Positions 2 through 18,503 of a stretch of 64,000 nucleotides of DNA are shown piece after piece. The notes under the pieces were generated by a model, which searched no databases, was not told the DNA's origin, and saw only the letters and a list, made by a program, of their open reading frames with translations. The stretch's first letter is position 1. Every line of letters starts with the position of its first letter. Origin of the DNA: Patescibacteria group bacterium. GTDB taxonomy: Bacteria; Patescibacteriota; Kazan-3B-28; UBA10110. The stretch covers positions 30,723 to 94,722 of the forward strand of contig JBAZXK010000002.1 in assembly GCA_041659905.1 (NCBI GenBank), written 5' to 3'. Both the position numbers and the translations under genes were made by a program.

Positions 2-481
2 GAAGAAAAGTATCAATCTAAAAACTTTATTGAAGAATTAAAACAGAGAGCAGACGGAGTTGTTTTCCTATATTCATTTCCAAAAGAACCTATTATTGCT
101 ACCGGTAAAGTTTTTACAGAATTTATGAAAGATATGCAAAAAGAAATCGTAGAACAAGTACAAGAAATTTATGGAATGACTGCTTCCAGCGGATACGCTG
201 TAGGTAAAGTAATCGTATGTACGGATATTGATTCTATACATAAAGTTCAGGAGGGCGACATTCTGGTTGCAAGCATGACCAGGCCTGAATATTTGCCTGC
301 CATGAAAAAAGCCTCTGCCATAATCACCGACGAGGGAGGTATAACGTGCCATGCCGCAATAATTTCTCGGGAGTTAGGCATCCCCTGTATAATTGGTACT
401 AAAATTGCGACTCAAGTCTTGAAAGATGGCATGACCGTGGAGGTAAAAGCAAACCATGGAGTAGTAAAAATAATTCAATAA
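2..481 (+). CDS. PEP-utilising enzyme mobile (phosphohistidine swivel) domain protein, 5' partial (runs off window start)
   Basis: Frame is open from nt 2 with no upstream stop. The C-terminal motif GGITCHAAIISRELGIPCIIG matches the PEP-utilising-enzyme phosphohistidine signature of PEP synthase, PPDK and rifampin phosphotransferase. Confidence 0.75.
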   Translation, partial: EEKYQSKNFIEELKQRADGVVFLYSFPKEPIIATGKVFTEFMKDMQKEIVEQVQEIYGMTASSGYAVGKVIVCTDIDSIHKVQEGDILVASMTRPEYLPAMKKASAIITDEGGITCHAAIISRELGIPCIIGTKIATQVLKDGMTVEVKANHGVVKIIQ

Positions 482-517
482 TAAAATATCAAGAAAATAG
501 TAATTTAAGGATATAGT

Positions 518-1428: not shown

Positions 1429-2370
1429 ATGAAATATTCCAGATTATTTCACGAACTTACTAAGAAAGATACGGATATCGCTGGCGGAAAAGGCGCCTCG
1501 CTTGGTGAAATGGTACAGATTAATATCCCAATACCTCCGGGATTTGTGGTGTTAGCAGGTTCGTTTGACCATTTTTTGGAAAAAAACGAGATTAAAGCCG
1601 ATATTGAAGCGATTTTAGAAAAGGTTAATCATCAAGACATTAATTCGGTTGATGGCGCGTCTGCTGAAATTCAAAGCATTATTCACCATATGCCGTTTCC
1701 TGAAGACATTGCCCAAGAAGCTTTAAAGCAATTTTCAGAACTAAATACTATCTATGTCGCCGTAAGATCTTCCGCAACAGCCGAAGATTCATCAGCAGCA
1801 TCATGGGCCGGTGAACTAGAAAGCTATTTAAATGTCACCGAAGATGCATTGTTGGATTGTATCAGGAAATGCTGGGCATCACTCTTTACACCCAGGGCAA
1901 TATTCTACAGATTTGAGAACAAGATGAATCTAGAAAAAGTTTCCGTTGCAGTTGTAGTGCAAAAGATGGTTCAATCCGATGTTTCAGGCATAGTCTTTAC
2001 GGTTCACCCGGTAACAAAGGATGAAAATCAAATGATTATTGAGGCTGGTTATGGTTTAGGGGAAGCTATCGTCGGCGGGAAAATCACGCCAGATAATTAT
2101 ATAATCAATAAATCTACTTTGGATATTACCAATAAATACATTTCTGAACAATCAATGATGATTATTAAAGCCAAAGATGCTCCAACGAAAGAAGAAGAGA
2201 TACCACAAGCAGATAGAGGAAAACAGAAATTAGCTGATGACAAGATAATTGATTTAGCTAAAATTTGTTTAAACATTGAGAAACATTACGGCTTTCCCTG
2301 CGATATCGAATGGGCTATGGAAAAGAATAGATTATATATAGTGCAGTCTAGGCCTATAACTACTTTATAA
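1429..2370 (+). CDS. PEP synthase / pyruvate phosphate dikinase N-terminal nucleotide-binding (PPDK_N, ATP-grasp) domain protein
   Basis: N-terminal GGKGASLGEM motif is typical of PEP synthase N-termini. 313 aa, ATP-grasp only. Confidence 0.75.
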   Translation: MKYSRLFHELTKKDTDIAGGKGASLGEMVQINIPIPPGFVVLAGSFDHFLEKNEIKADIEAILEKVNHQDINSVDGASAEIQSIIHHMPFPEDIAQEALKQFSELNTIYVAVRSSATAEDSSAASWAGELESYLNVTEDALLDCIRKCWASLFTPRAIFYRFENKMNLEKVSVAVVVQKMVQSDVSGIVFTVHPVTKDENQMIIEAGYGLGEAIVGGKITPDNYIINKSTLDITNKYISEQSMMIIKAKDAPTKEEEIPQADRGKQKLADDKIIDLAKICLNIEKHYGFPCDIEWAMEKNRLYIVQSRPITTL

Positions 2371-2422
2371 ACGAGAATTAAATATCTTACTCTGCTTTCC
2401 TGAATTTGAATCACAGCATACA

Positions 2423-2456
2423 AAAAACTGCCATTCAGAAAGAATGTCAGTTTTTT
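2423..2456 (+). terminator. bidirectional Rho-independent terminator
   Basis: A-run, then stem CTGCCATTC / GAATGTCAG (8 of 9 bp) with loop AGAAA, then TTTTTT. It lies downstream of the 1429..2370 gene and abuts the 3' end of the minus-strand tRNA. Confidence 0.65.
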
Positions 2457-2532
2457 GGTAGCGGGGGTTGGATTCGAACCAACGGCCTCAAGGTTATGAG
2501 CCTTGCGAGCTACCAGACTGCTCTACCCCGCG
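2456..2532 (-). tRNA. tRNA-fMet (initiator, anticodon CAU)
   Basis: Reverse complement folds as a cloverleaf with anticodon loop CUCAUAA. C1 is unpaired with position 72, and there is an A11:U24 pair. It closely resembles E. coli initiator tRNA. CCA is encoded. Confidence 0.8.
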
Positions 2533-2572
2533 GCGACGCCTGTAATGTTAGCAGAGAAACTGATGGTTGTCT

Positions 2573-2607
2573 ACAACAAAACGGCTATGAATAGCCGTTT
2601 TGTTTGA
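2573..2607 (-). terminator. Rho-independent terminator downstream of the RRM gene
   Basis: Hairpin AAACGGCTAT-GA-ATAGCCGTTT followed on the minus strand by UUUUGUUGU. Confidence 0.5.
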
Positions 2608-2617
2608 TAAAGCAAAT

Positions 2618-2896
2618 TTAGAACCGTTGGCCGCCAGCCGGACGATCAGTCATCGGCCGAGCTTCGCTAACGGTAATATTGCGGCCTTCTACTTCTGTGC
2701 CATGCACAGTAGAGATGGCTGCTTGAGCTTCTTCTTCGGTAGACATCTCTACAAAACCAAAACCTTTGGATTTGCCAGACATCTTGTCCTTGATGATAGT
2801 AGCGGATTCCACTGTACCAACACCGGCGAACAACTTACCTAAATCTTCGTCGGTCATAGCCCAAGGAAGTCCACCTACAAACAATTTCTTGCCCAT
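2618..2896 (-). CDS. RNA-binding protein with RRM domain
   Basis: RNP-2-like LFVGGL and RNP-1 KGFGFVEM motifs. 92 aa. Confidence 0.85.
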   Translation of the reverse strand: MGKKLFVGGLPWAMTDEDLGKLFAGVGTVESATIIKDKMSGKSKGFGFVEMSTEEEAQAAISTVHGTEVEGRNITVSEARPMTDRPAGGQRF

Positions 2897-3102
2897 AGTT
2901 ACCTCACATAATACTTAATATACCCGCGGTCGATCTACTTTCCTGGCTAGATCCTCGGGTATAGGCAAACTGCTTTTGACCAGAGGGAACTTTACACAAG
3001 AAACCCGCAACTGGCTTATCTTATCCTATCCCCGCCAAAAGTCAATGGAACACATTAAAAAACCCCTGCAAGGGCTTAGCCGGCTGATAAATTGGTTTTT
3101 AA

Positions 3103-3609
3103 CTAACTTTTCTTGGGTTTCTTGACAGCGGCTTTCTTAACTGCCACTTTTTTAGTAACTGGCACTGATTCTTTCTCTGTTTTACTATCAGTTTTGTTTT
3201 CTGCCATGATATCTACCAACCGATTGATAGACACTGTAAGTTTATCTAATTTAGCGTTAATGGCTTCGAACTCACGTTTATTGTCTCCGCCGCCAGTGTT
3301 CCTATAATCTGGGCTTTTGACAAAGCTGGGACGGCCAAAGTCCTTTCTGGGAGCCCTATCGCCACCGTCTTGGGTGTTTCTAAAGCAAGCACTGCAATAT
3401 ACCGGTTTGTCGCCAGAAGGGCGAAAAGGTACCTCACAGGCCTCTCCGCAGCTGGCACAAGTGGCTTTGTGCATAGTTACCGGCCCCCGGTCGCGGTCGC
3501 CAAAACTCGGACGGCCAAAACCCCTGTTGCCGCCTGATTTGAACCCCCCTCGACTGCCTCCCCGCTGGTTAAAATCTCTCATAGCTCTGGTACTATACGC
3601 CAGTATCAC
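3103..3609 (-). CDS. RG/RGG-rich zinc-ribbon protein with lysine-rich tail
   Basis: CASCGEAC...CSAC (CxxC-x17-CxxC) ribbon flanked by duplicated (K/G)DFGRPSF motifs and RGG boxes. C-terminus is K-rich. The true start may be the internal Met at MRDFNQRGG. Confidence 0.6.
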   Translation of the reverse strand: MILAYSTRAMRDFNQRGGSRGGFKSGGNRGFGRPSFGDRDRGPVTMHKATCASCGEACEVPFRPSGDKPVYCSACFRNTQDGGDRAPRKDFGRPSFVKSPDYRNTGGGDNKREFEAINAKLDKLTVSINRLVDIMAENKTDSKTEKESVPVTKKVAVKKAAVKKPKKS

Positions 3610-3686: not shown

Positions 3687-5321
3687 CTATTGGACAACTA
3701 TCTTCCCTTTCATAAAGGGATGGAGGGTGCAAATATAACTGAATGTCCCCTTGGTATTAAATGTAAAAGAAAATTCTTTTCCTTGAGTTAAATTGCCCGA
3801 ATCAAAGTTGCCTTGGCTAGTCACAGTATGGAGCATCGCATCCTCATTTTTCCAGGTCACTTTCGTCCCGACCGGGATAGTGAGAGTGGCCGGACTAAAA
3901 GCAAAATTTTTGATACTGACTCTTTCTTCTTTGTTGTTCATTCCACTAGTTGAATTATTGATTGAATTATTCGGTACATTGCTTTCAGCCGGAATTAACT
4001 TGAATATTTTACCGCTAGTCCCGCTGGGGCCGAGCGCTTCGGTGGTTAATAAATATAATTCGCCCATATCGTCCTGCCCTACTCCTTTGACAAACAAACC
4101 TAAGCGTCCATTACTATTGCCGGAAATTTTTAACTCCCGCCATAACCAACTTCCTTTATTGTTTAGAGCAGCGAACACGCCGCCATCGCCCGCAGTAAAA
4201 CTTTTGCTCCAATCGGCAAACACATAGTTGCCTGTTAAGCCGGCGAGGGCTGCCCCTCGATAGACATATCCTCCGACATTGGCTATCCCCACGCCCCCAT
4301 TACCCGGATGACCATATTCGAATACAGGATCCACCAGCGGTTCACCTTTAGCTCCGGTAGTGGGACACTCTGCTGGTGATTGATCGGGAGTTTGCGCACT
4401 AAAGCAATGCTTCCCCTCTCTGATATTCCAACCGTAATTATTCCCTTTTTTAACTATATCTACTTCTTCCCATAAATTTTGGCCGACATCGGCGACGAAT
4501 AATTCGTGGTTTCCTCCCGCATCAAAAGAAATATGATAAGGATTACGGAAGCCATAAGCGAATATTTCATCTTTACCGTCTTTGCCGATAAAAGGATTAT
4601 CTTGAGGGGCAGCATAGGGATCGCCTTTATCAATATCGATCCGCAGAACTTTCCCTAACAAAGTAGTAAGATCTTGGCCGTTACCACTGGCAGAATGCCC
4701 CAGACCGACATCATTGCCTTGACCACCGTCGCCGGTAGGAATATAGAGGTACCCATCCGGCCCAAATGCAATATGCCCTCCGTTATGATTGAACTGCGGC
4801 TTATCAATTTGTAAAATTATTTTTTCGGAACTCAAGTCAGCTATATTCGGATTACTGGCACTGACTTTAAATTCGGAGACACGGTTAGTACAATTCCATC
4901 CTGCTGGTGCGGTCTTGTTTAATGGCGCGCTGTAATAGACAAAAAAGCGGCCATTGGTTTTGAAATCGGGATGGAAGGCTAACCCCAGCAAACCTCTCTC
5001 GTCATAGTTCGTGGTTAATTTTACCAATTTACTATGCAGATCCAAGAAATTGTCTTTTAACACTTCTCCTGTAGAAGTGACTACCTTTATAACTCCGACT
5101 TGATCTACCAAGAACATTCTGCCCGTACCATCATTGGACGAAACAAAAGCGACAGGAGAAGTAAACCCCTGTGCTATTAACTTAATAGCAACTTCTTGAG
5201 TTGGTTGGTTGTTTATTGTATTTTGACTGGCTGGCAACTTGTACCCTTTGATAAGAAAATATACAACAGCGATAACTAATATACCCCCCAATACTACCCC
5301 TATTTTTTCTGTCGTATTCAT
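3687..5321 (-). CDS. membrane-anchored PQQ-dependent (soluble glucose/sorbosone dehydrogenase family) beta-propeller fused to a C-terminal cupredoxin (type-1 copper) domain
   Basis: N-terminal TM helix. GSDH-like motifs HNGG.IAFGPDGYLY and GDGG. C-terminal cupredoxin with His...Cys-x2-His-x2-Met copper ligands (MLHTV ... YICTLHPFM). Confidence 0.7.
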   Translation of the reverse strand: MNTTEKIGVVLGGILVIAVVYFLIKGYKLPASQNTINNQPTQEVAIKLIAQGFTSPVAFVSSNDGTGRMFLVDQVGVIKVVTSTGEVLKDNFLDLHSKLVKLTTNYDERGLLGLAFHPDFKTNGRFFVYYSAPLNKTAPAGWNCTNRVSEFKVSASNPNIADLSSEKIILQIDKPQFNHNGGHIAFGPDGYLYIPTGDGGQGNDVGLGHSASGNGQDLTTLLGKVLRIDIDKGDPYAAPQDNPFIGKDGKDEIFAYGFRNPYHISFDAGGNHELFVADVGQNLWEEVDIVKKGNNYGWNIREGKHCFSAQTPDQSPAECPTTGAKGEPLVDPVFEYGHPGNGGVGIANVGGYVYRGAALAGLTGNYVFADWSKSFTAGDGGVFAALNNKGSWLWRELKISGNSNGRLGLFVKGVGQDDMGELYLLTTEALGPSGTSGKIFKLIPAESNVPNNSINNSTSGMNNKEERVSIKNFAFSPATLTIPVGTKVTWKNEDAMLHTVTSQGNFDSGNLTQGKEFSFTFNTKGTFSYICTLHPFMKGKIVVQ

Positions 5322-9018: not shown

Positions 9019-10335
9019 TCAATAATCAACCTTGAATTGAAACGGACTGTATCCATCGTTGACCGTTGCTTTGAAAGCAGTGAAAATTTCCTCTCGGGCT
9101 ACTCTTGGGTCTACCTCGTAAGGATAGTCGTAAAGTATGCTCCGACGATGCCACTGGCTGTAGTCTTGATGACAAATCCATGATTTGGTTTTGTCGTAGA
9201 TCTCGGTCCCCGGGAAAGGAACTAAGTATGACACCCCTAGCTCGTAGGGCTTACATTTCTGCACTAGACGAATAGTCGCTTCGATGTCTGCCCGTGTCTC
9301 TCCGGGTATAGCTACAATCAAGCACATCCCGGTTTTTATCCCGACTTGTTTGCACAAATCGAAGGCTAACGCCACCTGTGAGTCAGTGAATCCTTTATGG
9401 AGTTCTCTCAGAATTCGATTGCTCCCCGACTCAACACCAAAACATAGTTGAGAACAACCAGCTTCTTTCATTTTCCTTAACAGCGCCAAGTCAACGCTAT
9501 CAACTCGGGTTTCGGCACTCCAGGAAATTGTTGGACCTCCTTTGACCAGCTTTTCACAAATCGACATGACTCGATCACGCTGGTAGCATAAGAAGTCGTC
9601 ACAGAGCATGATTTCGTCAACGGAGTAGCGCTGATAGAGATACTGCATTTCTCCAACCACTCGTTGTGGTGAATGCGGCCGGAAGCCTTTCCCAGAAACG
9701 CCCTTATCGCAAAAACTACATCCATAAGGGCATCCTCTGGAACTAAACATCGTGGCGATGGAAATGCCCACTTCTTTACTTAGATTTTCCAGGTATCTTT
9801 CCAACGGCAACAATTCGCGATTTGGTTCTGGAATGGCATCCAAATCTTGCGGTGGCTGGCATTTCACCATTGCCGGTCCAATCAATTTTCTTTGGCGAAT
9901 CCAATCTTCCAAAGAAACTGATGCCAACAAATCAACCAACATCACGGGAAAATTTTCGGCTTCTCCCTGGACAACCATATCTACATTATCTGCAGATAAG
10001 CCCCCATGGGTGATGGCACTAATACCGGGTCCACCAAAGATAATCATTTTCTGGGGATCATTTTCTTTGATACATCGAGCGATACGTAGCGCCTCGCCAA
10101 TTTCAGTGATAGTAGTGCTGATGCCAATGATACGAGTCCGGATGTTGTCGATACTAGCCTGGTAATCATGTTCGGCCAAGAGCTGGCCATTGATAAATGA
10201 AGTTTCCCAGCCGTTCTTTTGGAAAGCTGCTATCAAATAGAGCAATCCCAGCGGTGGATATAATCTAAATTCAATTTCCTCCGCTGGACGGGGAAAAATC
10301 AAGGTGATTTCCTTTGCTACCCACTTGGCAGTCAT
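9019..10335 (-). CDS. B12-binding domain radical SAM protein (class B radical SAM)
   Basis: N-terminal B12-binding-like Rossmann region, then the CPYGCSFC (Cx3Cx2C) radical SAM motif. 438 aa. Confidence 0.8.
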   Translation of the reverse strand: MTAKWVAKEITLIFPRPAEEIEFRLYPPLGLLYLIAAFQKNGWETSFINGQLLAEHDYQASIDNIRTRIIGISTTITEIGEALRIARCIKENDPQKMIIFGGPGISAITHGGLSADNVDMVVQGEAENFPVMLVDLLASVSLEDWIRQRKLIGPAMVKCQPPQDLDAIPEPNRELLPLERYLENLSKEVGISIATMFSSRGCPYGCSFCDKGVSGKGFRPHSPQRVVGEMQYLYQRYSVDEIMLCDDFLCYQRDRVMSICEKLVKGGPTISWSAETRVDSVDLALLRKMKEAGCSQLCFGVESGSNRILRELHKGFTDSQVALAFDLCKQVGIKTGMCLIVAIPGETRADIEATIRLVQKCKPYELGVSYLVPFPGTEIYDKTKSWICHQDYSQWHRRSILYDYPYEVDPRVAREEIFTAFKATVNDGYSPFQFKVDY

Positions 10336-10460: not shown

Positions 10461-12104
10461 TTAAAGCATATTGATCAGTCGCTTAGCTTCCCGCTCAGCG
10501 TCAGCCAAATATGCTTCGTAGTTTTGTTGACGGTCGAGCTTACCGTCAGAAAGAACATAGGTGTCAGTGGGATTGAACTTCTGGAGAAAATATCGATCGT
10601 GTGACACCAACACAATCGTACCTTCATAGTGAGTAACTGCTTCTTCCAGTGCTTCTAGTGCTTCTATGTCCAGATGATTAGTCGGCTCATCAAGAAGCAA
10701 AGTATTCACCGATAAAGCAGAGAATAACGCCAATAGCAACCGTGATCTCCCGCCGGGAGAAAGGTTACTCACAGTCTTGCCAATTTCTTCAGGACTAAAA
10801 CCGTAATGAACAGCTAAAGCATATGCATCAGGAACTGGCAAATGACCTTTTTGCGTTAACAGATCAGAAAGGGTTGTCTCACGAGGAAGATTGTCATGTT
10901 CTTGCATTAAATTGCCTATAATCAGCGCATTGCCGACTCTCACCTCCCCCGCTAGGGGCGACAACTCCCCCCCAATTGTTTTGAGGAGAGTGGACTTGCC
11001 TGATCCATTCAAACCAAGAATCACCACTCGGCTACCGTAAGGAAAAATAGCAGATATGGGCCCGATTTGAAAACCGCTTTGGGCATATCCGGCAACCACA
11101 CCTTGCAATACTATGTCCTTGGATCCTCCGGGTTTTAATGGTCTGATATTGATGCGAAACAATTCTCGCTCGAGCGGTTTTTCAACTTTCTCCATCTGCT
11201 CAATGCGCTTTTCGATTGCCTTTGCAGCTCGACTAGAGCCGGCCGCCCGATCCCGTTTAAACCCTTGCAGAAACTTGTCGCTAGCGGAGCCGCGAAAGTT
11301 GGCACCTTTGGCCGCTTGAGCCCGTTTAGACTTAGCTGCCCCAACCAGCCGTTGAGTTTCCTCTTGTTGTGCCTCATAATCAGCTGCCTGTTTTCTGCGT
11401 TCCTTTTCTCTCCGTTCCAAATAGTCGGAATATCGACCATTAGTAACATTGAGCGAACGAGTATGCCAGTCAATTTCGAAAATCTTTCTAACCACTCGAT
11501 CAAGAAACGTGCGGTCATGAGAAACCACCAAACAAGCTGCTGGTGATCGCATCAAAAAATCTTCGAGCCAAATCAAAGCTGAGAGATCAAGGTTGTTGGT
11601 CGGCTCGTCTAATAGCAGTAAATCCGCATCGGACAATAGCACACCGGCCATCAATACCTTGCTTTTCTGACCGGATGACAATGTGTTAATCGATCGATCA
11701 TTGTCAACACCGCTCAAACCGAATCCCGCTAGGGTTATTTGCATTCGATAGTCGAAAGAATAACCTCCTCGGCTCTCGTATTCTTCAACTGCTTCTGGAG
11801 ATGTTTCAAGCTGGGCTTCCAGATCCCCAATACCCGTTACTCTACGTAAATAGTCACCAATGGTTTCGTCGGTCATCAGGCTGGTGTCCTGCGGCATATA
11901 GCCAATAGTTAGGCCCTTGCGCAAAGTGACAGTGCCGGCATCAGGCTCAACTAACCCCGCAATGATTTGCAGGAGAGTTGATTTACCCGTGCCATTACCA
12001 CCAACTAGCCCTACCTTCTGACCTTTTTCCAACGAAAACGAAATATCATTGATGACCGTAACGGTCTCGTAGGTTTTGCCAATTCGTTCAATCTTGACTT
12101 CCAT
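10461..12104 (-). CDS. ABC-F family ATPase (tandem ABC domains, no transmembrane domain; EttA/Uup/ARE-like)
   Basis: Two Walker A motifs (GGNGTGKST, GLNGSGKST) and two signature motifs (LSGGQKSKV, LSPGGRSRL) with a charged linker between them. 547 aa. Confidence 0.85.
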   Translation of the reverse strand: MEVKIERIGKTYETVTVINDISFSLEKGQKVGLVGGNGTGKSTLLQIIAGLVEPDAGTVTLRKGLTIGYMPQDTSLMTDETIGDYLRRVTGIGDLEAQLETSPEAVEEYESRGGYSFDYRMQITLAGFGLSGVDNDRSINTLSSGQKSKVLMAGVLLSDADLLLLDEPTNNLDLSALIWLEDFLMRSPAACLVVSHDRTFLDRVVRKIFEIDWHTRSLNVTNGRYSDYLERREKERRKQAADYEAQQEETQRLVGAAKSKRAQAAKGANFRGSASDKFLQGFKRDRAAGSSRAAKAIEKRIEQMEKVEKPLERELFRINIRPLKPGGSKDIVLQGVVAGYAQSGFQIGPISAIFPYGSRVVILGLNGSGKSTLLKTIGGELSPLAGEVRVGNALIIGNLMQEHDNLPRETTLSDLLTQKGHLPVPDAYALAVHYGFSPEEIGKTVSNLSPGGRSRLLLALFSALSVNTLLLDEPTNHLDIEALEALEEAVTHYEGTIVLVSHDRYFLQKFNPTDTYVLSDGKLDRQQNYEAYLADAEREAKRLINML

Positions 12105-12294: not shown

Positions 12295-13170
12295 TCAACT
12301 TCGAGCTTTGTAATACTCCGCTATTCTGGTACCCGCACAGTTACAAGTCACCAGTTCCGTAGCATGCCCCGCCAGCCGGGAAATCAGTTTTAGTGTATTG
12401 ACAGTGTTGCTCTGGAAGATGGCTAAAACCTTCTCCATATTGCCAGGTTGCATTGATAGACTGCTAGGCACTCCTACATCGTAATCAGTTACTGATGCGA
12501 CTGCGCCATAGCAAATTCCGAGCTCGTGAGCAAAATAACATTCTGGGTACTGAGTCATATTGACTACATGCCCTCCCCACAGCATGAACATCTTGCTTTC
12601 CGCCACGGTAGAAAACCGTGGCCCTTGGATAACAACCACTGTTCCGCCAATCCGATGGGGTATTCCGCTCAACTCCAGCTCCCGCTCCATTATCCCGCTC
12701 AGGTGAGAGCAATAAGGAGCACTCATGCCAAGATGAACAACTTCAGAGTCCACCGTCGAGGTATCATCACGCCCCCAGGTAAAGTTGATGAACTGGTCTA
12801 GGATCACCAGTGTACCTGGAGCTATACTTTCCTGCAGACTACCCACCACACAAGTCGCAATAACATGGTTCGCGCCGACGGATTTTAACGCGAATAAGTT
12901 GGCCTTATAGGGCACTTTATGCGGTAGGATGGTGTGGTCTTTGCCATGCCGAGGTAAAAAAGCAATTCGACTGCCATTACAATCGCCCACACTAATTGCA
13001 GACGAAGGTTTTCCATATGGCGTGTCTACATCCACTTCTTTTTGGATATTAAACCCCGGCAGACTACATAGGCCCGATCCTCCGATGATACCGATAACTC
13101 CAGAAAGGGATTTGCCCGTTGAGAAGTTGGCATCGCCGGTTTGGCTCAAGAATTCTCCAGATGAGTCCAT
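12295..13170 (-). CDS. mtnP: 5'-methylthioadenosine / purine nucleoside phosphorylase (MTAP family)
   Basis: IGIIGGSGL N-terminal motif and PRHG...H family motifs. The ORF is open up to 13221, but the Met at 13170 (MDSSGE) is the plausible start. It overlaps the 3' end of the upstream radical SAM gene in another frame. Confidence 0.75.
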   Translation of the reverse strand: MDSSGEFLSQTGDANFSTGKSLSGVIGIIGGSGLCSLPGFNIQKEVDVDTPYGKPSSAISVGDCNGSRIAFLPRHGKDHTILPHKVPYKANLFALKSVGANHVIATCVVGSLQESIAPGTLVILDQFINFTWGRDDTSTVDSEVVHLGMSAPYCSHLSGIMERELELSGIPHRIGGTVVVIQGPRFSTVAESKMFMLWGGHVVNMTQYPECYFAHELGICYGAVASVTDYDVGVPSSLSMQPGNMEKVLAIFQSNTVNTLKLISRLAGHATELVTCNCAGTRIAEYYKARS

Positions 13171-14575
13171 GTGTAATCTCCTGGGTAAAGACAGTATTTC
13201 CTGCATCTGTAGCAGTAACACTGCCTAATAGCTCGTGTGTTCCCCATGCACATCCTCCACCATCCAACATGCCGTAATTCTTGCCAAGGATTTTACGATC
13301 ACTAATGAGAGGAACACGCTGCCTCCAAGCTTTCACTGTTTTAGTGTCAGCAATTCTGAAAGAAGCAGGCAGTTCGCTAACATGTCCCTGATCACACCGA
13401 AGAAATGGACAATTAGTTACTTGGCCATCAGGCTGAATTACCAACTGGCTGCCATAACAAGTGCAATCAATGCTAAAAGGTAGTGCTTGGCGCAAGGCCG
13501 TCAGTTTTTTCTCCAGCTGATACTCAAAAAAATCATCGCCATCGGTTTGATGTGCATCATTCCAGCCGGAAAGGACACCCTGAGCAGCGGCTAGGTAATA
13601 ACTGTCCGGATCGATCGCTAACGGAGACTCTAACAAAGCATTCCCTTTCAGTAAATTAAAGCCAAACTTGGACACGCCTAGATCTTGCAAGAATTTCGGA
13701 TACTCGTCCAGGATGGCGATATTCTCTGCATTAATGATCACCGATGCTACAACCTTTACTCGGTTAGCCGTCAGGATTTTGATTGCCTGGGCAATTCCGG
13801 CAAAAGTTGGTTCCCCGGCAGAGGTCCGCCTTGATTTGTTATTGATTGCAGAAGGACCGTCAATGCCGACTGCTACCATAACCTTATGGTCCGCTAACAG
13901 CTTGACTAGCTCCTCATCGATCAATATGCCATTAGTACATAACATTAGCTCCAAATTCTGGGGTAGCCTTCCCAGAGCCTTCTCTGCTTCCACAAAAGGC
14001 AAAACCTTCTCGAACACTGGGCGGTTCAATAGAGGTTCTCCTCCGTAGAAAACTAGAAAGAAGGGCTCACTGTCTTCACCTGAAAAGTCCTCGATATGTT
14101 TCTCCCATAATTGGATCCCGGCAACTGCATCGTCCCAAGACAATTTACTGTCACCGTATTGTTTTGCCAATTTGGGGATCGGACAATATCCGCAGGCAAA
14201 GTTACAGTTCTGTGCCAACATTAAATACAGGATGGTTGGCCGATCTAAGAGCTGGATTGCCCATTTCTGGGCAACTTCCAACTCTTGCTGGTCGATCTCC
14301 GATGATGCTATCAACATCTTTTTCTCGCATAGTTCAACGACTAGATCATTCAAGCAGAGATTACCCGGCAACCTGCCATCCATGGCATTCCAAACTGTGG
14401 TTGGCAAATACACAGGCTCCGGATGTAATTGATGGAAAAGTGCTGATATTCCATCCTGCTCCAAATGACAAAGAAATCGAGATTCCTGGAAAAACTGATC
14501 CATAATTATCCCTTCTTTCTGAAGAAAAAGCCCCCGTGTCCAAACGGGGGCTACATGTGGTCTCACTGTACGCAA
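13064..14575 (-). CDS. radical SAM/SPASM-domain enzyme with N-terminal RRE-like extension (peptide-maturase-like)
   Basis: CNFACGYC (Cx3Cx2C) about 100 aa into the protein. C-terminal Cys-rich SPASM-like region (CTCYG...NCPFLRC...DGGGCAWG). The N-terminal ~95 aa contain a PqqD-like motif TVWNAMDG..LNDLVVEL. The alternative start MDQFF is at 14503. Confidence 0.8.
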   Translation of the reverse strand: MRTVRPHVAPVWTRGLFLQKEGIIMDQFFQESRFLCHLEQDGISALFHQLHPEPVYLPTTVWNAMDGRLPGNLCLNDLVVELCEKKMLIASSEIDQQELEVAQKWAIQLLDRPTILYLMLAQNCNFACGYCPIPKLAKQYGDSKLSWDDAVAGIQLWEKHIEDFSGEDSEPFFLVFYGGEPLLNRPVFEKVLPFVEAEKALGRLPQNLELMLCTNGILIDEELVKLLADHKVMVAVGIDGPSAINNKSRRTSAGEPTFAGIAQAIKILTANRVKVVASVIINAENIAILDEYPKFLQDLGVSKFGFNLLKGNALLESPLAIDPDSYYLAAAQGVLSGWNDAHQTDGDDFFEYQLEKKLTALRQALPFSIDCTCYGSQLVIQPDGQVTNCPFLRCDQGHVSELPASFRIADTKTVKAWRQRVPLISDRKILGKNYGMLDGGGCAWGTHELLGSVTATDAGNTVFTQEITHGLIWRILEPNRRCQLLNGQIPFWSYRYHRRIGPM

Positions 14576-14592: not shown

Positions 14593-14769
14593 TTACTCTC
14601 TTACCTTTTCGGCCGCTTCGAGCAACTGCTCCTTGGTCAACTTGACCTGGTTGCCATCATCGTCAGTGATCTTCACGTTGCCTTCGCGCTTGTTGACTTC
14701 CACGGTGGGGCAACAGCCTTTAACACCGCAGAGTTTGTAGCGCTTAATGTCCTCATTATTGGGCATCAT
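14593..14769 (-). CDS. small Cys-containing protein, candidate RiPP precursor or small metal-binding protein (not in the ORF track because it is under 60 aa)
   Basis: ATGATG start preceded by AAGGAGG 5 nt upstream. Translation is MMPNNEDIKRYKLCGVKGCCPTVEVNKREGNVKITDDDGNQVKLTKEQLLEAAEKVRE (58 aa, Cys at 14, 19 and 20). Its stop lies 18 nt upstream of the radical SAM ORF. Confidence 0.5.
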   Translation of the reverse strand: MMPNNEDIKRYKLCGVKGCCPTVEVNKREGNVKITDDDGNQVKLTKEQLLEAAEKVRE

Positions 14770-14992
14770 TGGCCCTCCTTTTTCATGAATTTGAGGTCAA
14801 AGATCATGCAGAACTACTTCTGCTTAACCCAAACTTACCTCATTAAACAGAATTAGTCCATATGACGGTCTCTACAGGCACAAATGAGACAATGGCAAGG
14901 GGATATGAAAATATCTCATATATGGCCTAATAATCAGTCTAATAGTCAAATCAACCAAGATAGGCACCTCGGTCATTTGATTCGTTTTTATT

Positions 14993-15275
14993 TGGCTCCG
15001 GGGGAGGGATTCGAACCCACGACCAATTGATTACACAAATCCATAATTTTCATTATGGCGTGGACTATATCTTTACCATGCCTCATTTGGAGAGGTTTAG
15101 GCATCTCGGTATCTAGTCTCTACGGCGCCCTCAATTTTAAATTGAGGTTCCCACGGTGTTAACATATCTCACGACTTAGTCTTCACCGTTATCCCAAGAT
15201 GTTCACTTTGGCGTTTCCACCAAAGGCTGCGTTTTATGATCACAGTCAACTGCTCTACCGCTGAGCTACCCCGGA
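14993..15275 (-). tRNA. tRNA-Asn (anticodon GUU) interrupted by a 208-nt group I intron
   Basis: The 5' exon is 15275..15242 (UCCGGGGUAGCUCAGCGGUAGAGCAGUUGACUGU). The 3' exon is 15033..14993 (UAAUCAAUUGGUCGUGGGUUCGAAUCCCUCCCCCGGAGCCA). Joined, they give a 75-nt cloverleaf with anticodon loop CUGUUAA, a U1:A72 pair and a G73 discriminator, as in bacterial tRNA-Asn. Confidence 0.8.
15034..15241 (-). ncRNA. group I self-splicing intron (ORF-less) in tRNA-Asn anticodon loop
   Basis: The 5' exon ends in U, which can pair as U.G with a GCAG guide sequence about 12 nt into the intron. There is a P2 hairpin CUUUGG...CCAAAG. GUAGAGACUAGA and AAGAUAUAGUCC elements are present, and the intron ends in G. 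Confidence 0.75.
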
Positions 15276-15305: not shown

Positions 15306-16751
15306 CTATTCGAGATAATCCTTTAATTTCTTAGAATCTTTAGATTTTTTGAGTTTCGCGAGGGCTTTGGCTTCGATCTGGCGAATGCGCTCGCGCGTTA
15401 CTCCAAATTCATGCCCGACTTCTTCTAAAGTATGTGCCCACTCCCCGTCTAAGCCAAAGCGCATCTTTAATATTTTCTGTTCCCGCGGGGTAAGTAGATG
15501 CAACACACTACCTATATCTGACTTCAATAAATCTTGGGCGGATTGTTCATCTGGCGTTAAACTATCTTCATCTTTGATAAAATCGCCCAGCAGGCTATCG
15601 TCTTCATCACCGACAGATTTCTCTAACGACACGGTTTCCTGTGAAATTTTAAGGATGTGGTTAACCTTTTCTAATTCAATCCCCATTTCGTTGGCAATTT
15701 CCTCAGGTGAAGGCGGCCGACCCAACTCTTGCACCATCTGCCGCTGAGTGCGTGCCAAGCGATTCATCGTTTCGACCATATGCACCGGAATCCGGATAGT
15801 GCGGGCTTGGTCTGCGATCGCCCGGGTAATGGCCTGTTTAATCCACCAGGTCGCATAAGTAGAGAATTTAAACCCGCGTTTGTAGTCGAATTTATCTACC
15901 GCTTTCATCAAACCGATATTGCCTTCCTGGATTAAATCCAGGAGCGACAATCCCCGGCCGATATATTTCTTAGCAATACTTACAACTAACCGCAAGTTGG
16001 CTTCGGCTAAGGCTTTGGCAGCCATCGTGTCGCCAGCTGCCACCCGTTTAGCTAAAGCCACTTCTTCCGGCTTCTTCAATAAGGCGATCTGCCCAATTTC
16101 CTTCAAATACATCCGCACCGAATCTTCGCCAATCGCTTCGGTGGATTCTTCTTCGCTCAATCCTTTTTTGACCGGTTTTTTACTCTTGCGGACTTTCTTA
16201 GTTTCTACATCCGAAGCTCCGGATTGCCAAATCAGATCCTCGCGCAAATCTACCACTTCTATCCCTAAATCTAAGAAGGATTCGTACAGCTTATCCAGTA
16301 GCTCGATGTTATTTTCGGCATCAGGAACTGCTTGATTTAATTCCTGCTGCGTAACAAAATTTTGGTCTTGCGCTTTCAGTAATAAATATTCGATCTCTGG
16401 CGGAAAATTGTACTTTTTTAGTTTATCCTTAAAACTTTGAACTTCTTCTATCTCGTCTTCCAGTTGTAATTCCGGCTCCTGTTGTTCTACGACTGGAATA
16501 ACTAGTTCTTCGATTTTTTTTATTTTCTTTTTTGGTTTAATTACTGCTTTGACAGGTTTCTTGGCTGCTTTTTTGGCCGCTGGTTTTGCGCGGTGCGGGG
16601 CCTTCACCGCTTTCTTCAATTTATGAGCCGTTTTTTTCACCGGCTTAGTTGCCTTTTTGGCAAATTTAGCCTTCTTTCTTGAAGGCATAGTGGTTTTTCT
16701 CTGCTTAGCTTTTGCCGAAGCAGACTTCTTGGCTGATTGTTTCTTCGCCAT
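15306..16751 (-). CDS. rpoD: RNA polymerase sigma-70 factor (primary sigma)
   Basis: Regions 2-4 are conserved ([63 protein letters not shown]). N-terminus is K-rich. Confidence 0.9.
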
Positions 16752-16766
16752 ATAAAAATAAAATAA

Positions 16767-18503
16767 TTAAAATTGTCGGTTGAATTCCTCTAAAAATTCT
16801 TGCAACTTAACTGCATCACCCATCTGCTCGGCTACAATAATCTGGCGATTGAGTTCTGCCAGGGTCAGTTTGGTTTGGCGTTGCTTCAGTAGATTAATGT
16901 AAAATTTCAACTCTTGTTCCACATCCTTCTCTGGCATATCGGCATAATACTCCTCTGTCGTCATGAGAGTTTCTAGGAGATCCACCTTTTCCTGATAGTC
17001 CAGTTTGGCCAGCAGACCGTCAAGAGAAAATTCTCTCCCAGTATAGCAATTTTTTAGTTCCGCGTAAACTTTTTCTGTAAAAGGGTGGGGCCATTTCAGA
17101 TTATTCAGCTCACTCTGGACTTTTTCCCAATAATTTGGCCTAAAAGTTAGTATGCCCAAAATCCGCTTTTCCAGCCAATCCGTTCTGTCTGCCGGCTTAA
17201 TTTCTCCTTTAGGCAAGCCGATCTTATTCGGCTTACGCTTAACTTCTAGATTTTTCAACGCCTCGTACAAATTGGTTTGACTGATACCTAACGTTTCGGA
17301 AAGTTTTTTGACATACTGATCTTTTTCGACCGGACTGCCTAATAAATTGATCGCTGGCAGCACTTCGGCGACAACTTTCTTTTTATCGTTAACGGAAGTA
17401 GTGCCATATTTTTTAGTAGCATAACTGATATAAAAATCAACGATCGGGATCGCTGCCGCGACGGTCGCTCGCCATTTGGCCGGATCAGCTTTAGCACATT
17501 CATCCGGATCTTTGAATCCTTCTAAAACAGCTATTTTGATTTCTAAATCCTTTGCCGAAGCCAATTCAATTACCCGCTTGGTGGCTTCACTGCCCGCTCC
17601 ATCGGCGTCTAAGGCTAAAATCAAAGTTTCGGCGTGTCGGCGCAAAATATCCAGTTGCTCGAGAGTAAGTGCCGTGCCCGATGAGGCTACTACATTGGTC
17701 ACGCCAGCTTGGTACGAAGATAGGGCATCCATTTGTCCTTCCACTAATACAACTGTTTTCTTTTCTTGGATACTTTCTTTAGTCACTGACAGGCCATATA
17801 AAATTCTGCCTTTGTTAAATATGGGGGTTTCGGGTGAATTTAGATATTTAGGCTGATCGTTATTATCCAAAACCCGGCCAGTAAACCCCACCACTCTCCC
17901 ACCAACATCTGTGATGGGGAACATCAAGCGATGACGAAATTTATCGTATTGTTTACCGTTGCGATTGACGATCAGTCCAGCTTTTTCAATTTCTTCCGGG
18001 GTGAATTCTTTGCGCCGTAAAAATTTAAACAAGAAATCCCAGCCAGCAGGGGCATAACCTAACCGAAATTTGGTAATAGTTTCCGGGGCCACCCCGCGAT
18101 TAATCAAGTAATTCATTGCTTGCCGCCCCGCCACCGTATCTGCCATATATTTCTCAAAAAACTTAGCCGATAGCTCGTTGATAGCGAGCAACTTGCTTTT
18201 GACCCCCCAATCCCGCGGTCGGGTTTTTAATTCTACTCCGGCACGCTCGGCGAGCTCTCCTAAAGCTTCTGTGAATTCTAACCCCTCCTTTTTCATCAAG
18301 AACCCAAAGATGTCGCCGCCCGCCCCACAACCAAAACAGTGCCAGATCTGCTTATCTGGGCTCACGATCAGCGAGGGGTCTTTGTCCCCATGGAATGGGC
18401 AAACCGTCCGGAAGTTGCGTCCGGCTTTTTTCAGGGGTAGATACTGCCCAATAAACTCGACAATATCTACTTTGGCTTTGATTTCGTCCAGCTGGTCCAT
18501 CAC
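16767..18503 (-). CDS. dnaG: DNA primase
   Basis: CHC2 zinc finger (CPFHGDKDPSLIV...WHCFGCGAGGD) and a TOPRIM domain. It is adjacent to rpoD as in the macromolecular-synthesis operon. Confidence 0.9.
   Translation of the reverse strand: MMDQLDEIKAKVDIVEFIGQYLPLKKAGRNFRTVCPFHGDKDPSLIVSPDKQIWHCFGCGAGGDIFGFLMKKEGLEFTEALGELAERAGVELKTRPRDWGVKSKLLAINELSAKFFEKYMADTVAGRQAMNYLINRGVAPETITKFRLGYAPAGWDFLFKFLRRKEFTPEEIEKAGLIVNRNGKQYDKFRHRLMFPITDVGGRVVGFTGRVLDNNDQPKYLNSPETPIFNKGRILYGLSVTKESIQEKKTVVLVEGQMDALSSYQAGVTNVVASSGTALTLEQLDILRRHAETLILALDADGAGSEATKRVIELASAKDLEIKIAVLEGFKDPDECAKADPAKWRATVAAAIPIVDFYISYATKKYGTTSVNDKKKVVAEVLPAINLLGSPVEKDQYVKKLSETLGISQTNLYEALKNLEVKRKPNKIGLPKGEIKPADRTDWLEKRILGILTFRPNYWEKVQSELNNLKWPHPFTEKVYAELKNCYTGREFSLDGLLAKLDYQEKVDLLETLMTTEEYYADMPEKDVEQELKFYINLLKQRQTKLTLAELNRQIIVAEQMGDAVKLQEFLEEFNRQF

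Follow-up and report, generated by a model that had tools for sequence, protein, structure and literature searches.

A family of three-cysteine mini-proteins directly precedes a peptide-modifying radical SAM enzyme in Patescibacteria, most likely as its substrate

The nearest functional analogues of the system described here are the SCIFF/ranthipeptide systems and the QhpD/QhpC pair. In the former, a small, conserved, Cys-containing peptide (six cysteines in 45 residues in SCIFF) is encoded directly 5' of a radical S-adenosylmethionine (SAM) maturase bearing a RiPP recognition element (RRE; RiPP, ribosomally synthesized and post-translationally modified peptide); such systems often lack a protease or exporter and are conserved lineage-wide rather than being hypervariable. 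In the latter, the radical SAM enzyme QhpD staples a small protein, not a released peptide: QhpC is the gamma subunit of quinohemoprotein amine dehydrogenase, and its staples are Cys-to-Asp/Glu thioethers, which PapB makes as well. Here we describe a locus from a 64,000-nucleotide stretch of a Patescibacteria genome (contig JBAZXK010000002.1, positions 30,723 to 94,722; hereafter the window), in which a 58-codon open reading frame (ORF) on the minus strand is followed by a gene for a radical SAM enzyme. In hundreds of members of the candidate phyla radiation (CPR)/Patescibacteria, the family to which this ORF belongs directly precedes a peptide-modifying radical SAM enzyme, most likely as its substrate. 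The reading we favour, with moderate confidence, is that the product of this ORF serves as a substrate dedicated to the enzyme encoded downstream: a RiPP-like mini-protein, probably cross-linked via its cysteines, rather than a classical leader-core peptide. The gene and its signals are as follows.

14593..14769, minus strand: gene for the 58-residue Cys-motif mini-protein, TAA stop codon included, with a tandem in-frame ATG ATG start
14774..14780, minus strand: Shine-Dalgarno sequence AAGGAGG, spaced 4 nt from the first ATG and 7 nt from the second
14701..14733, minus strand: codons 13-23, L-C-G-V-K-G-C-C-P-T-V, the family-defining C-x4-C-C-P loop (C14, C19, C20, P21)
14653..14664, minus strand: codons 36-39, D-D-D-G (D36, D37, G39), the predicted beta3-beta4 turn

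The 58-residue translation is MMPNNEDIKRYKLCGVKGCCPTVEVNKREGNVKITDDDGNQVKLTKEQLLEAAEKVRE, ending at a TAA at 14595-14593, and the start region reads aaggagg-gcca-ATG-ATG on the minus strand from 14780 to 14764; GGAGG-like motifs also lie 5' of many mini-protein homologues. The initial annotation of the window had the coordinates, sequence, length, stop codon and ribosome-binding site of this ORF right in every respect. Public data contain an identical protein, 'hypothetical protein WC805_02105', from a Patescibacteria metagenome-assembled genome. The gene is an example of a functionally central gene hidden by a 60-residue ORF cut-off.

Judged by its pattern of substitution, the 58-codon ORF is a genuine gene under purifying selection, because the ratio of non-synonymous to synonymous change (dN/dS) is 0.05-0.25 for the more distant pairs of mini-proteins, whose synonymous sites are near saturation (proportion of synonymous differences up to 0.85), and because the closest relative (L081, with a radical SAM enzyme of 93% amino acid identity) encodes an identical mini-protein with three synonymous and no non-synonymous changes in the ORF. 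Loss of the ORF or of its frame in related genomes had been named as grounds for discarding it; in-frame homologues were instead found beside the radical SAM gene. The same comparison bears on the possibility that the ORF is untranslated and the region merely the 5' untranslated region, or leader, of the radical SAM mRNA. Nothing speaks for this except the small size of the ORF and its absence from a track of ORFs of at least 60 residues. The comparative data refute it, leaving it next to no chance: amino acids are conserved despite saturated synonymous change, homologues form 408 clusters, and the ribosome-binding site is strong. A search of Rfam found no riboswitch or other non-coding RNA 5' of the mini-protein gene, its sole hit being a group I intron in a tRNA gene farther upstream.

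Sequence searches place the ORF at the head of an unannotated family of small three-Cys proteins. While a word-indexed search returned only the mini-protein itself, an exhaustive phmmer search of 1.84 billion representatives gave 74 matches at E<=1e-3, some 65 of them small proteins of 45-127 residues with the same motif, and a profile search extended the family to 408 clusters at 90% identity, all labelled 'hypothetical' and none with a Pfam domain. Among 195 distinct members (median length 63 residues), C14, C20 and D37 are invariant (195/195), and C19 (192), P21 (194), D36 (193) and G39 (191) nearly so; L13 (186), G15 (185), V42 (183) and L44 (180) are also well conserved. The full C-x4-C-C-P arrangement is present in 186 of the 195. 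The C-x4-CC motif flagged early on is therefore the motif that defines the whole family, and the proposed check of its three cysteines came out strongly in their favour. Conservation runs throughout residues ~11-52, with only the N-terminal 2-30 residues and the extreme C-terminus variable.

No Pfam or NCBIfam model, NCBIfam precursor models included, describes the family (the mini-protein and 60 relatives were scanned), and its profile has no match in the PDB. Three candidate resemblances were set aside. DUF397 (PF04149) was dropped when none of 60 members matched it even at E<=10; weak matches to Myosin_VII_N (13 of 60 members, none reaching the gathering score, best E 1.3e-4) and to Permuted_GreAB-C (7 of 60) were taken as noise or generic beta-hairpin similarity. 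In the searchable literature, queries with the motif and with CPR combined with radical SAM, RiPP, ranthipeptide or ABC-F retrieved no description of the system.

The mini-protein gene heads a conserved cassette, in which it is followed by a terminator-like hairpin, the radical SAM gene, an overlapping gene for a purine nucleoside phosphorylase resembling methylthioadenosine phosphorylase (MTAP) and then a gene for an ABC-F ATPase.

14519..14552, minus strand: intrinsic-terminator-like hairpin (9-bp stem with 7 G-C pairs, 6-nt loop) and T-tract
13064..14503, minus strand: radical SAM enzyme, 479 residues, with an RRE-like N-terminal domain (residues ~1-88) and a reduced SPASM/Twitch-like C-terminal domain
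12295..~13170, minus strand: MTAP-like purine nucleoside phosphorylase, with its start (TTG 13149, ATG 13170 or ATG 13206) inside the radical SAM gene
10461..12104, minus strand: ABC-F ATPase, ribosomal-protection-like (NF000355), the fourth conserved member of the cassette

Homologues of the radical SAM enzyme number more than 350, the majority at 43-57% identity and the majority from CPR genomes. Sampling from the enzyme side scanned one genome per GTDB species (loci L001-L080), and 25 orthologous loci were examined. Homologous mini-protein genes, the micro-ORFs that the initial annotation had suggested searching for next to such enzymes, occur in 24 of these 25 loci; in 23 they lie on the same strand, 3-141 nt upstream of the radical SAM gene, and in L002 the gene sits at the opposite end of the cassette. 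The MTAP-like gene follows the radical SAM gene in all 25, and an ABC-F gene is present in ~18.

Sampling from the peptide side, by scanning metagenome contigs for LCGVQGCC, yielded 72 loci with at least 500 nt of downstream sequence. The radical SAM gene lies directly downstream of the mini-protein gene in 49 of them; in 12 the mini-protein gene is convergent on ABC-F<-MTAP(<-rSAM, the radical SAM gene), in four the radical SAM gene lies 1.5-2 kb away, in two only the ABC-F gene was seen, and in five nothing was seen within the sequence available. This breakdown puts ~90% of canonical mini-protein loci in the cassette and shows that ABC-F is linked to the mini-protein as faithfully as the radical SAM enzyme is. 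The alternative order, rSAM->MTAP->ABC-F-> <-peptide, is found in L002, L093, L095, L100-L102, L108-L110 and L120-L122, so the mini-protein remains linked to the module even where it does not adjoin the radical SAM gene. Both samplings (49/72 and 24/25) reveal the adjacency of peptide gene and modifying enzyme expected of a RiPP system. The four-gene cassette recurs across CPR lineages, namely those of Giovannoni-, Uhr-, Zambryski-, Berkel-, Kerfeld- and Paceibacteria type.

The ABC-F protein scores above the cut-off of the 'ribosomal protection-like' model (403.5 bits against 380). Together with the linkage, this score hints at a connection to translation. It would also suit a classical antibiotic RiPP cluster, in which the peptide would be a secreted, ribosome-targeting toxin and an antibiotic-resistance (ARE)-like ABC-F would protect its producer; the tight linkage, and the 12 loci in which the mini-protein gene abuts the ABC-F gene convergently, fit such a picture. 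We nevertheless regard it as very improbable. The conserved cassette lacks an exporter, a protease and a leader-cleavage motif, the mini-protein is under strong purifying selection along its whole length across deep CPR lineages, unlike diversifying toxin cores, and the ABC-F may be a housekeeping translation factor of these small genomes.

The radical SAM enzyme, labelled AslB by JGI, has its core CX3CX2C motif at C100/C104/C107, and all of its best NCBIfam matches are peptide or protein maturases: FibroRumin (TIGR04136; 121.5 bits, cut-off 400), followed by QhpD (TIGR03906; 100.9, cut-off 453), YhhB (89, cut-off 445), anSME (TIGR03942; 88, cut-off 349.45), PapB (NF047865; 78.7, cut-off 340) and the SCIFF maturase (TIGR03974; 48.6, cut-off 425). 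An AlphaFold2 model (predicted local distance difference test (pLDDT) 86.5, predicted template modelling score (pTM) 0.88) places three beta-strands followed by helices in the N-terminal domain (residues ~11-87). Searched against the PDB with Foldseek, the enzyme matched TigE (4.5e-17), CteB (1.7e-15) and anSMEcpe (1.6e-14), and further SkfB, SuiB and ChlB, the last of these bound to its precursor leader. The alignments to TigE and CteB are whole-length and take in the N-terminal domains of both; a hidden Markov model alignment with TigE likewise includes this domain (query residues 7-287, with TigE residues 5-106 covered). From the predicted fold and these alignments, the N-terminal domain reads as an RRE-like (PqqD-like), putatively peptide-binding element, as expected of an enzyme with a RiPP-type substrate. 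The match to CteB is a further likeness to SCIFF/ranthipeptide systems.

The initial annotation had called the enzyme a 'rSAM-SPASM'. This was half right: the link to maturase-type radical SAM enzymes stands, while Pfam SPASM gives no match to the window enzyme and only weak matches in 10 of 20 orthologues (best E 0.0019). A SPASM domain is characterized by a 7-Cys motif, CX9-15GX4C ... CX2CX5CX3C ... C, and two auxiliary clusters. In the C-terminal half of the enzyme only C347, C349, C365 and C418 are invariant. The first SPASM half-motif is recognizable as C349-x10-G-x4-C365, and CX2CX5CX3C is missing in all 108 scorable CPR-type orthologues, 96 of which keep only its last Cys (...GGGC418AW). 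By analogy with anSME numbering, the three lost cysteines would ligate auxiliary cluster II and the retained one cluster I; on this analogy, the CPR clade resembles SPASM enzymes pared down to one auxiliary cluster. Orthologues from GC-rich loci (37-42% identity; L132 and L159 among the positives) keep a complete CX2CX5CX3C, as in DCHDCEAKSICGGGCAW, and to judge from their sequences the reduced domain evidently derives from the full SPASM domain that they still possess.

These features set the enzyme beside two further relatives. It aligns with anSMEcpe over residues 103-381, as it does by fold, and the C-C-P-T of the mini-protein is reminiscent of the C-x-P-x-R target of anSME, a Cys/Ser-to-formylglycine oxidase. 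Unlike in anSME systems, however, C-C-P-T-V lacks the Arg of the sulfatase motif, no sulfatase is encoded nearby, and the cysteines that ligate the second auxiliary cluster in anSME are missing from the window enzyme. SkfB and other Twitch-domain peptide maturases are radical SAM enzymes that have one auxiliary cluster and form a Cys thioether, and SkfB is among both the fold and the sequence matches; the sequence similarity is weak (E 4e-4), and the domain here, unlike that of SkfB, evidently derives from a full SPASM domain.

The spacer between the two genes carries a second conserved signal. In the window, 89 nt separate the mini-protein stop codon from the radical SAM start. A stable single stem-loop with a directly adjoining T-rich tract, defined by folding energy, is present in 50 of 56 (89%) distinct peptide-radical SAM spacers of 58-159 nt (median -21 kcal/mol), compared with 26% of same-length control segments; an earlier perfect-stem rule, superseded by the energy-based definition, gave 41% and 9%. 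The hairpin sequences are unrelated among loci, indicating that the structure and not the sequence is conserved. The hairpin is likely an attenuator that sets the peptide:enzyme ratio: most transcripts would stop there, so that the mini-protein would be made in excess over the enzyme. The earlier suggestion that the mini-protein is translationally coupled to the radical SAM enzyme fails here, since the 89-nt spacer with its 9-bp, GC-rich hairpin and T-tract intervenes.

The translationally coupled pair is instead the radical SAM enzyme and the MTAP-like phosphorylase. Their genes share at least 86 nt in the window, read in different frames; in nearly all related loci, including L001, L003, L004, L009, L081 and L085, the overlap measures 4 to ~122 nt. 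In L081, one gene caller shortened the phosphorylase to avoid the overlap. In the clade of the window, the G-I-I-G-G-S-G motif of the phosphorylase is encoded inside the last codons of the radical SAM gene, which specify its conserved C-terminal tail, and both frames are thus constrained. The phosphorylase falls short of the MTAP model TIGR01694 (260.3 bits, cut-off 274.85) and clearly exceeds the threshold of Pfam PNP_UDP_1 (126.5 against 25.1). 5'-Deoxyadenosine is a by-product and an inhibitor of radical SAM enzymes, and an insertion mutant of MtnP, a methylthioadenosine phosphorylase, has been built for the study of 5-deoxyadenosine salvage (PMC8102628). The coupled MTAP-like enzyme would remove this inhibitory by-product and salvage its adenine. 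The pair clearly exemplifies translational coupling between a radical SAM gene and that of a candidate enzyme for 5'-deoxyadenosine clearance.

GC-rich loci, apparently from organisms outside the CPR (L021 is labelled Pseudonocardiales), carry extra enzymes between the mini-protein gene and the radical SAM gene. In L132 this is a cytochrome P450 (PF00067, 309 bits; 2040-3392), and in L159 (319-1738), L165 (3281-4938) and L139 (3435-4250) a PhyH-type dioxygenase with an APH-family kinase. P450, PhyH and APH proteins are typical tailoring enzymes of peptide natural-product clusters. Such tailoring genes, the RRE-like domain, the attenuator-like hairpin and the strict adjacency of the two genes are the main support for a substrate-enzyme relation.

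The mini-protein itself is predicted by AlphaFold2, run with the family alignment, to be a compact beta4-alpha domain (pLDDT 84.5, pTM 0.60) with the following elements.

Residues 8-12: beta1
Residues 13-21: Cys loop, between beta1 and beta2
Residues 22-26: beta2
Residues 31-35: beta3
Residues 36-40: DD-G turn
Residues 41-45: beta4
Residues 46-57: helix

Because the beta1-beta2 and beta3-beta4 connections share one end of a meander sheet, the conserved Cys and Asp residues should cluster in space, a proximity that follows from the topology of the model. The C-terminal part, initially taken for an acidic, lysine-rich tail, turns out to be a conserved beta-strand and helix of this predicted domain. 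The earlier idea of an N-terminal Cys 'core' with a follower peptide is thereby altered: a RiPP-like substrate is the best-supported reading, by virtue of the RRE-like domain, the hairpin and the tailoring genes, while the dichotomy of leader and core has gone, and neither a leader/follower-core organization nor proteolytic release was found.

How the enzyme might act on such a domain can be outlined. The RRE-like domain would bind the conserved C-terminal half of the mini-protein; the enzyme would cleave SAM and, with its single remaining auxiliary cluster, modify the C-x4-C-C-P loop, abstracting a hydrogen atom and joining a loop Cys to an acceptor carbon as a thioether. The likeliest chemistry would be one or two Cys thioether cross-links, with D36 and D37 as candidate acceptors, attractive because PapB and QhpD form thioethers between Cys and Asp/Glu. 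By analogy, the near-invariant three Cys and two Asp would match the donor and acceptor residues of thioethers of the PapB/QhpD type. Alternatively, C19 in C-C-P-T could be oxidized to formylglycine in the manner of anSME. The product probably remains in the cell as a stapled mini-protein, given a cassette without protease or exporter.

Set against its nearest analogues, the system departs from both. Unlike in SCIFF/ranthipeptide systems, the mini-protein is predicted to be folded and has three cysteines near its N-terminus, peptide and enzyme stay below family thresholds, no curated precursor model is matched, CPR enzymes lack three of the four CX2CX5CX3C cysteines, and MTAP-like and ABC-F genes belong to the cassette. 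The invariance of C14, C20 and D37, and the near-invariance of C19 and D36, recall QhpD/QhpC. Unlike in that system, no dehydrogenase, QhpC-like sequence or protease is encoded nearby, the cassette partners being MTAP-like and ABC-F proteins, and the Cys-Asp spacing is 16-23 residues and spans a beta-hairpin.

A predicted stable fold whose Cys loop (13-21) and DD-G turn (36-40) lie at the same end would also befit an autonomous Cys3(+Asp) protein that binds Zn or a small Fe-S cluster and serves radical SAM enzymes as an accessory (for example an electron donor, a cluster or sulfur carrier, or a chaperone) and not as a substrate. Conservation over the full length of the protein agrees with this, and so does a divergent branch of the family in phages, comprising genes on 12 IMG/VR viral contigs (L169-L180) and L082/L083. 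Within 5 kb of these genes there is no maturase, MTAP or ABC-F gene. The branch keeps the three Cys and the DD turn all the same, which shows that a protein of this fold and Cys3/DD signature need not have a maturase dedicated to it. The sequence LCCGK-GCP is common among viral members, retaining three Cys with the third shifted from position 19 to position 15. QueD and a QueE-like radical SAM enzyme are encoded within ~1 kb in seven of the 12 viral loci; the others adjoin ThyX, a CCA-adding enzyme, MazG or a SLOG protein, and these are regions of nucleotide metabolism.

In all 14 loci, the viral-branch gene is followed directly by a gene for an 82-103-residue membrane protein with KCSLCLGFW (a CxxC motif), so that the two form a fixed module. 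This membrane protein belongs to no Pfam family, and neither the window nor the CPR loci encode it. The canonical mini-protein motif is absent from IMG/VR, and neither a fold search of BFVD nor a tblastn search of GenBank phages with a viral homologue gave anything significant. In L082/L083 (ENA ERZ26869290, ctg292604), the mini-protein gene and its neighbours occur twice in inverted orientation (326-514, minus strand, and 4001-4189, plus strand), which reflects a large inverted repeat or else a palindromic artefact of assembly.

Several observations weigh against the mini-protein as a cross-linked substrate. One is the phage branch, with its conserved signature and no maturase at hand, in which the third Cys has shifted, as would be more usual for residues of a metal site than for those of a fixed cross-link. 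In addition, a folded domain is predicted, with conservation over the whole 45-residue core and no division into leader and core; the conserved cassette (25 enzyme-first loci) contains no protease or exporter; the CPR enzymes have shed three of four CX2CX5CX3C cysteines, and no NCBIfam maturase family has a curated cut-off that the window enzyme reaches; and the modification chemistry is wholly inferred. The predicted folded domain, the missing protease and exporter, the lost SPASM cysteines and the maturase-less phage branch keep metal binding a live alternative and the main rival. Of the initial suggestion of a small metal-binding or regulatory protein coupled to the radical SAM gene, then, metal binding has gained from the phage branch and translational coupling has dropped out.

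We still consider an autonomous metal-binding accessory unlikely. The enzyme beside it carries an RRE-like peptide-recognition domain, a terminator-like hairpin in 89% of spacers suits a substrate made in excess, and P450 or PhyH/APH tailoring genes intervene in some clusters. The QueE link amounts to only about two independent phage lineages, the others adjoining ThyX or a CCA-adding enzyme, and neither sequence nor profile comparison relates the mini-protein to known ferredoxin, rubredoxin or zinc-ribbon families. Taken together, this evidence leads us to retain a dedicated substrate of the radical SAM enzyme as the preferred reading.

A broader proposal, which we put forward as distinctly speculative, is that the cassette, instead of being a secondary-metabolite cluster, is a physiological module found lineage-wide in the CPR, in which a beta4-alpha mini-protein, stapled by the radical SAM enzyme or loaded with metal, works inside the cell with the co-inherited ABC-F protein, a translation factor in this reading, or as a peptide-derived redox or metal cofactor, and that phages have captured the mini-protein and paired it with a CxxC membrane protein. 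If so, the module would represent a new functional class of radical SAM-modified small protein and would count among the very few biochemical systems that are both conserved and enriched in the CPR. The genomes of CPR/Patescibacteria are tiny and contain hardly any biosynthetic clusters, and many of their genes have no assigned function; with one protein of 55-65 residues and one enzyme, the four-gene module provides a concrete and cheaply testable entry to CPR-specific biochemistry. What is new here is a previously undescribed precursor or mini-protein family together with a derived maturase clade of putative single-auxiliary-cluster enzymes, having presumably shed the cysteines that ligate the second auxiliary cluster in anSME, a housekeeping-like cassette and a phage offshoot.

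Other genes flank the cassette in the window.

16767-18503, minus strand: dnaG
15306-16751, minus strand: rpoD
15275-14993, minus strand: tRNA gene split by a group I intron, between rpoD and the mini-protein gene
9019-10335, minus strand: B12-binding radical SAM enzyme, directly 3' of the ABC-F gene

The B12-binding radical SAM enzyme has the RiPP enzyme ApyD as its best NCBIfam match (156.6 bits, cut-off 750). We rejected it as a member of the cassette, from which it is absent in 25 related loci; it may be an additional tailoring enzyme peculiar to this genome, or else have nothing to do with the cassette. Among the enzyme-first loci, dnaG and rpoD lie upstream only in L025 and the window. 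RpoD, the primary sigma factor, has a long Lys/Ala-rich, histone-H1-like N-terminal extension (residues 1-~85) before region 1.1. The group I intron in the tRNA gene matches Rfam RF00028 at 15041-15251 (68.8 bits, gathering score 50). ARAGORN misses the unspliced tRNA and calls one once ~200 nt are removed in silico. Most cut points make it His-GTG, and Asn or Thr may apply if splicing takes place elsewhere.

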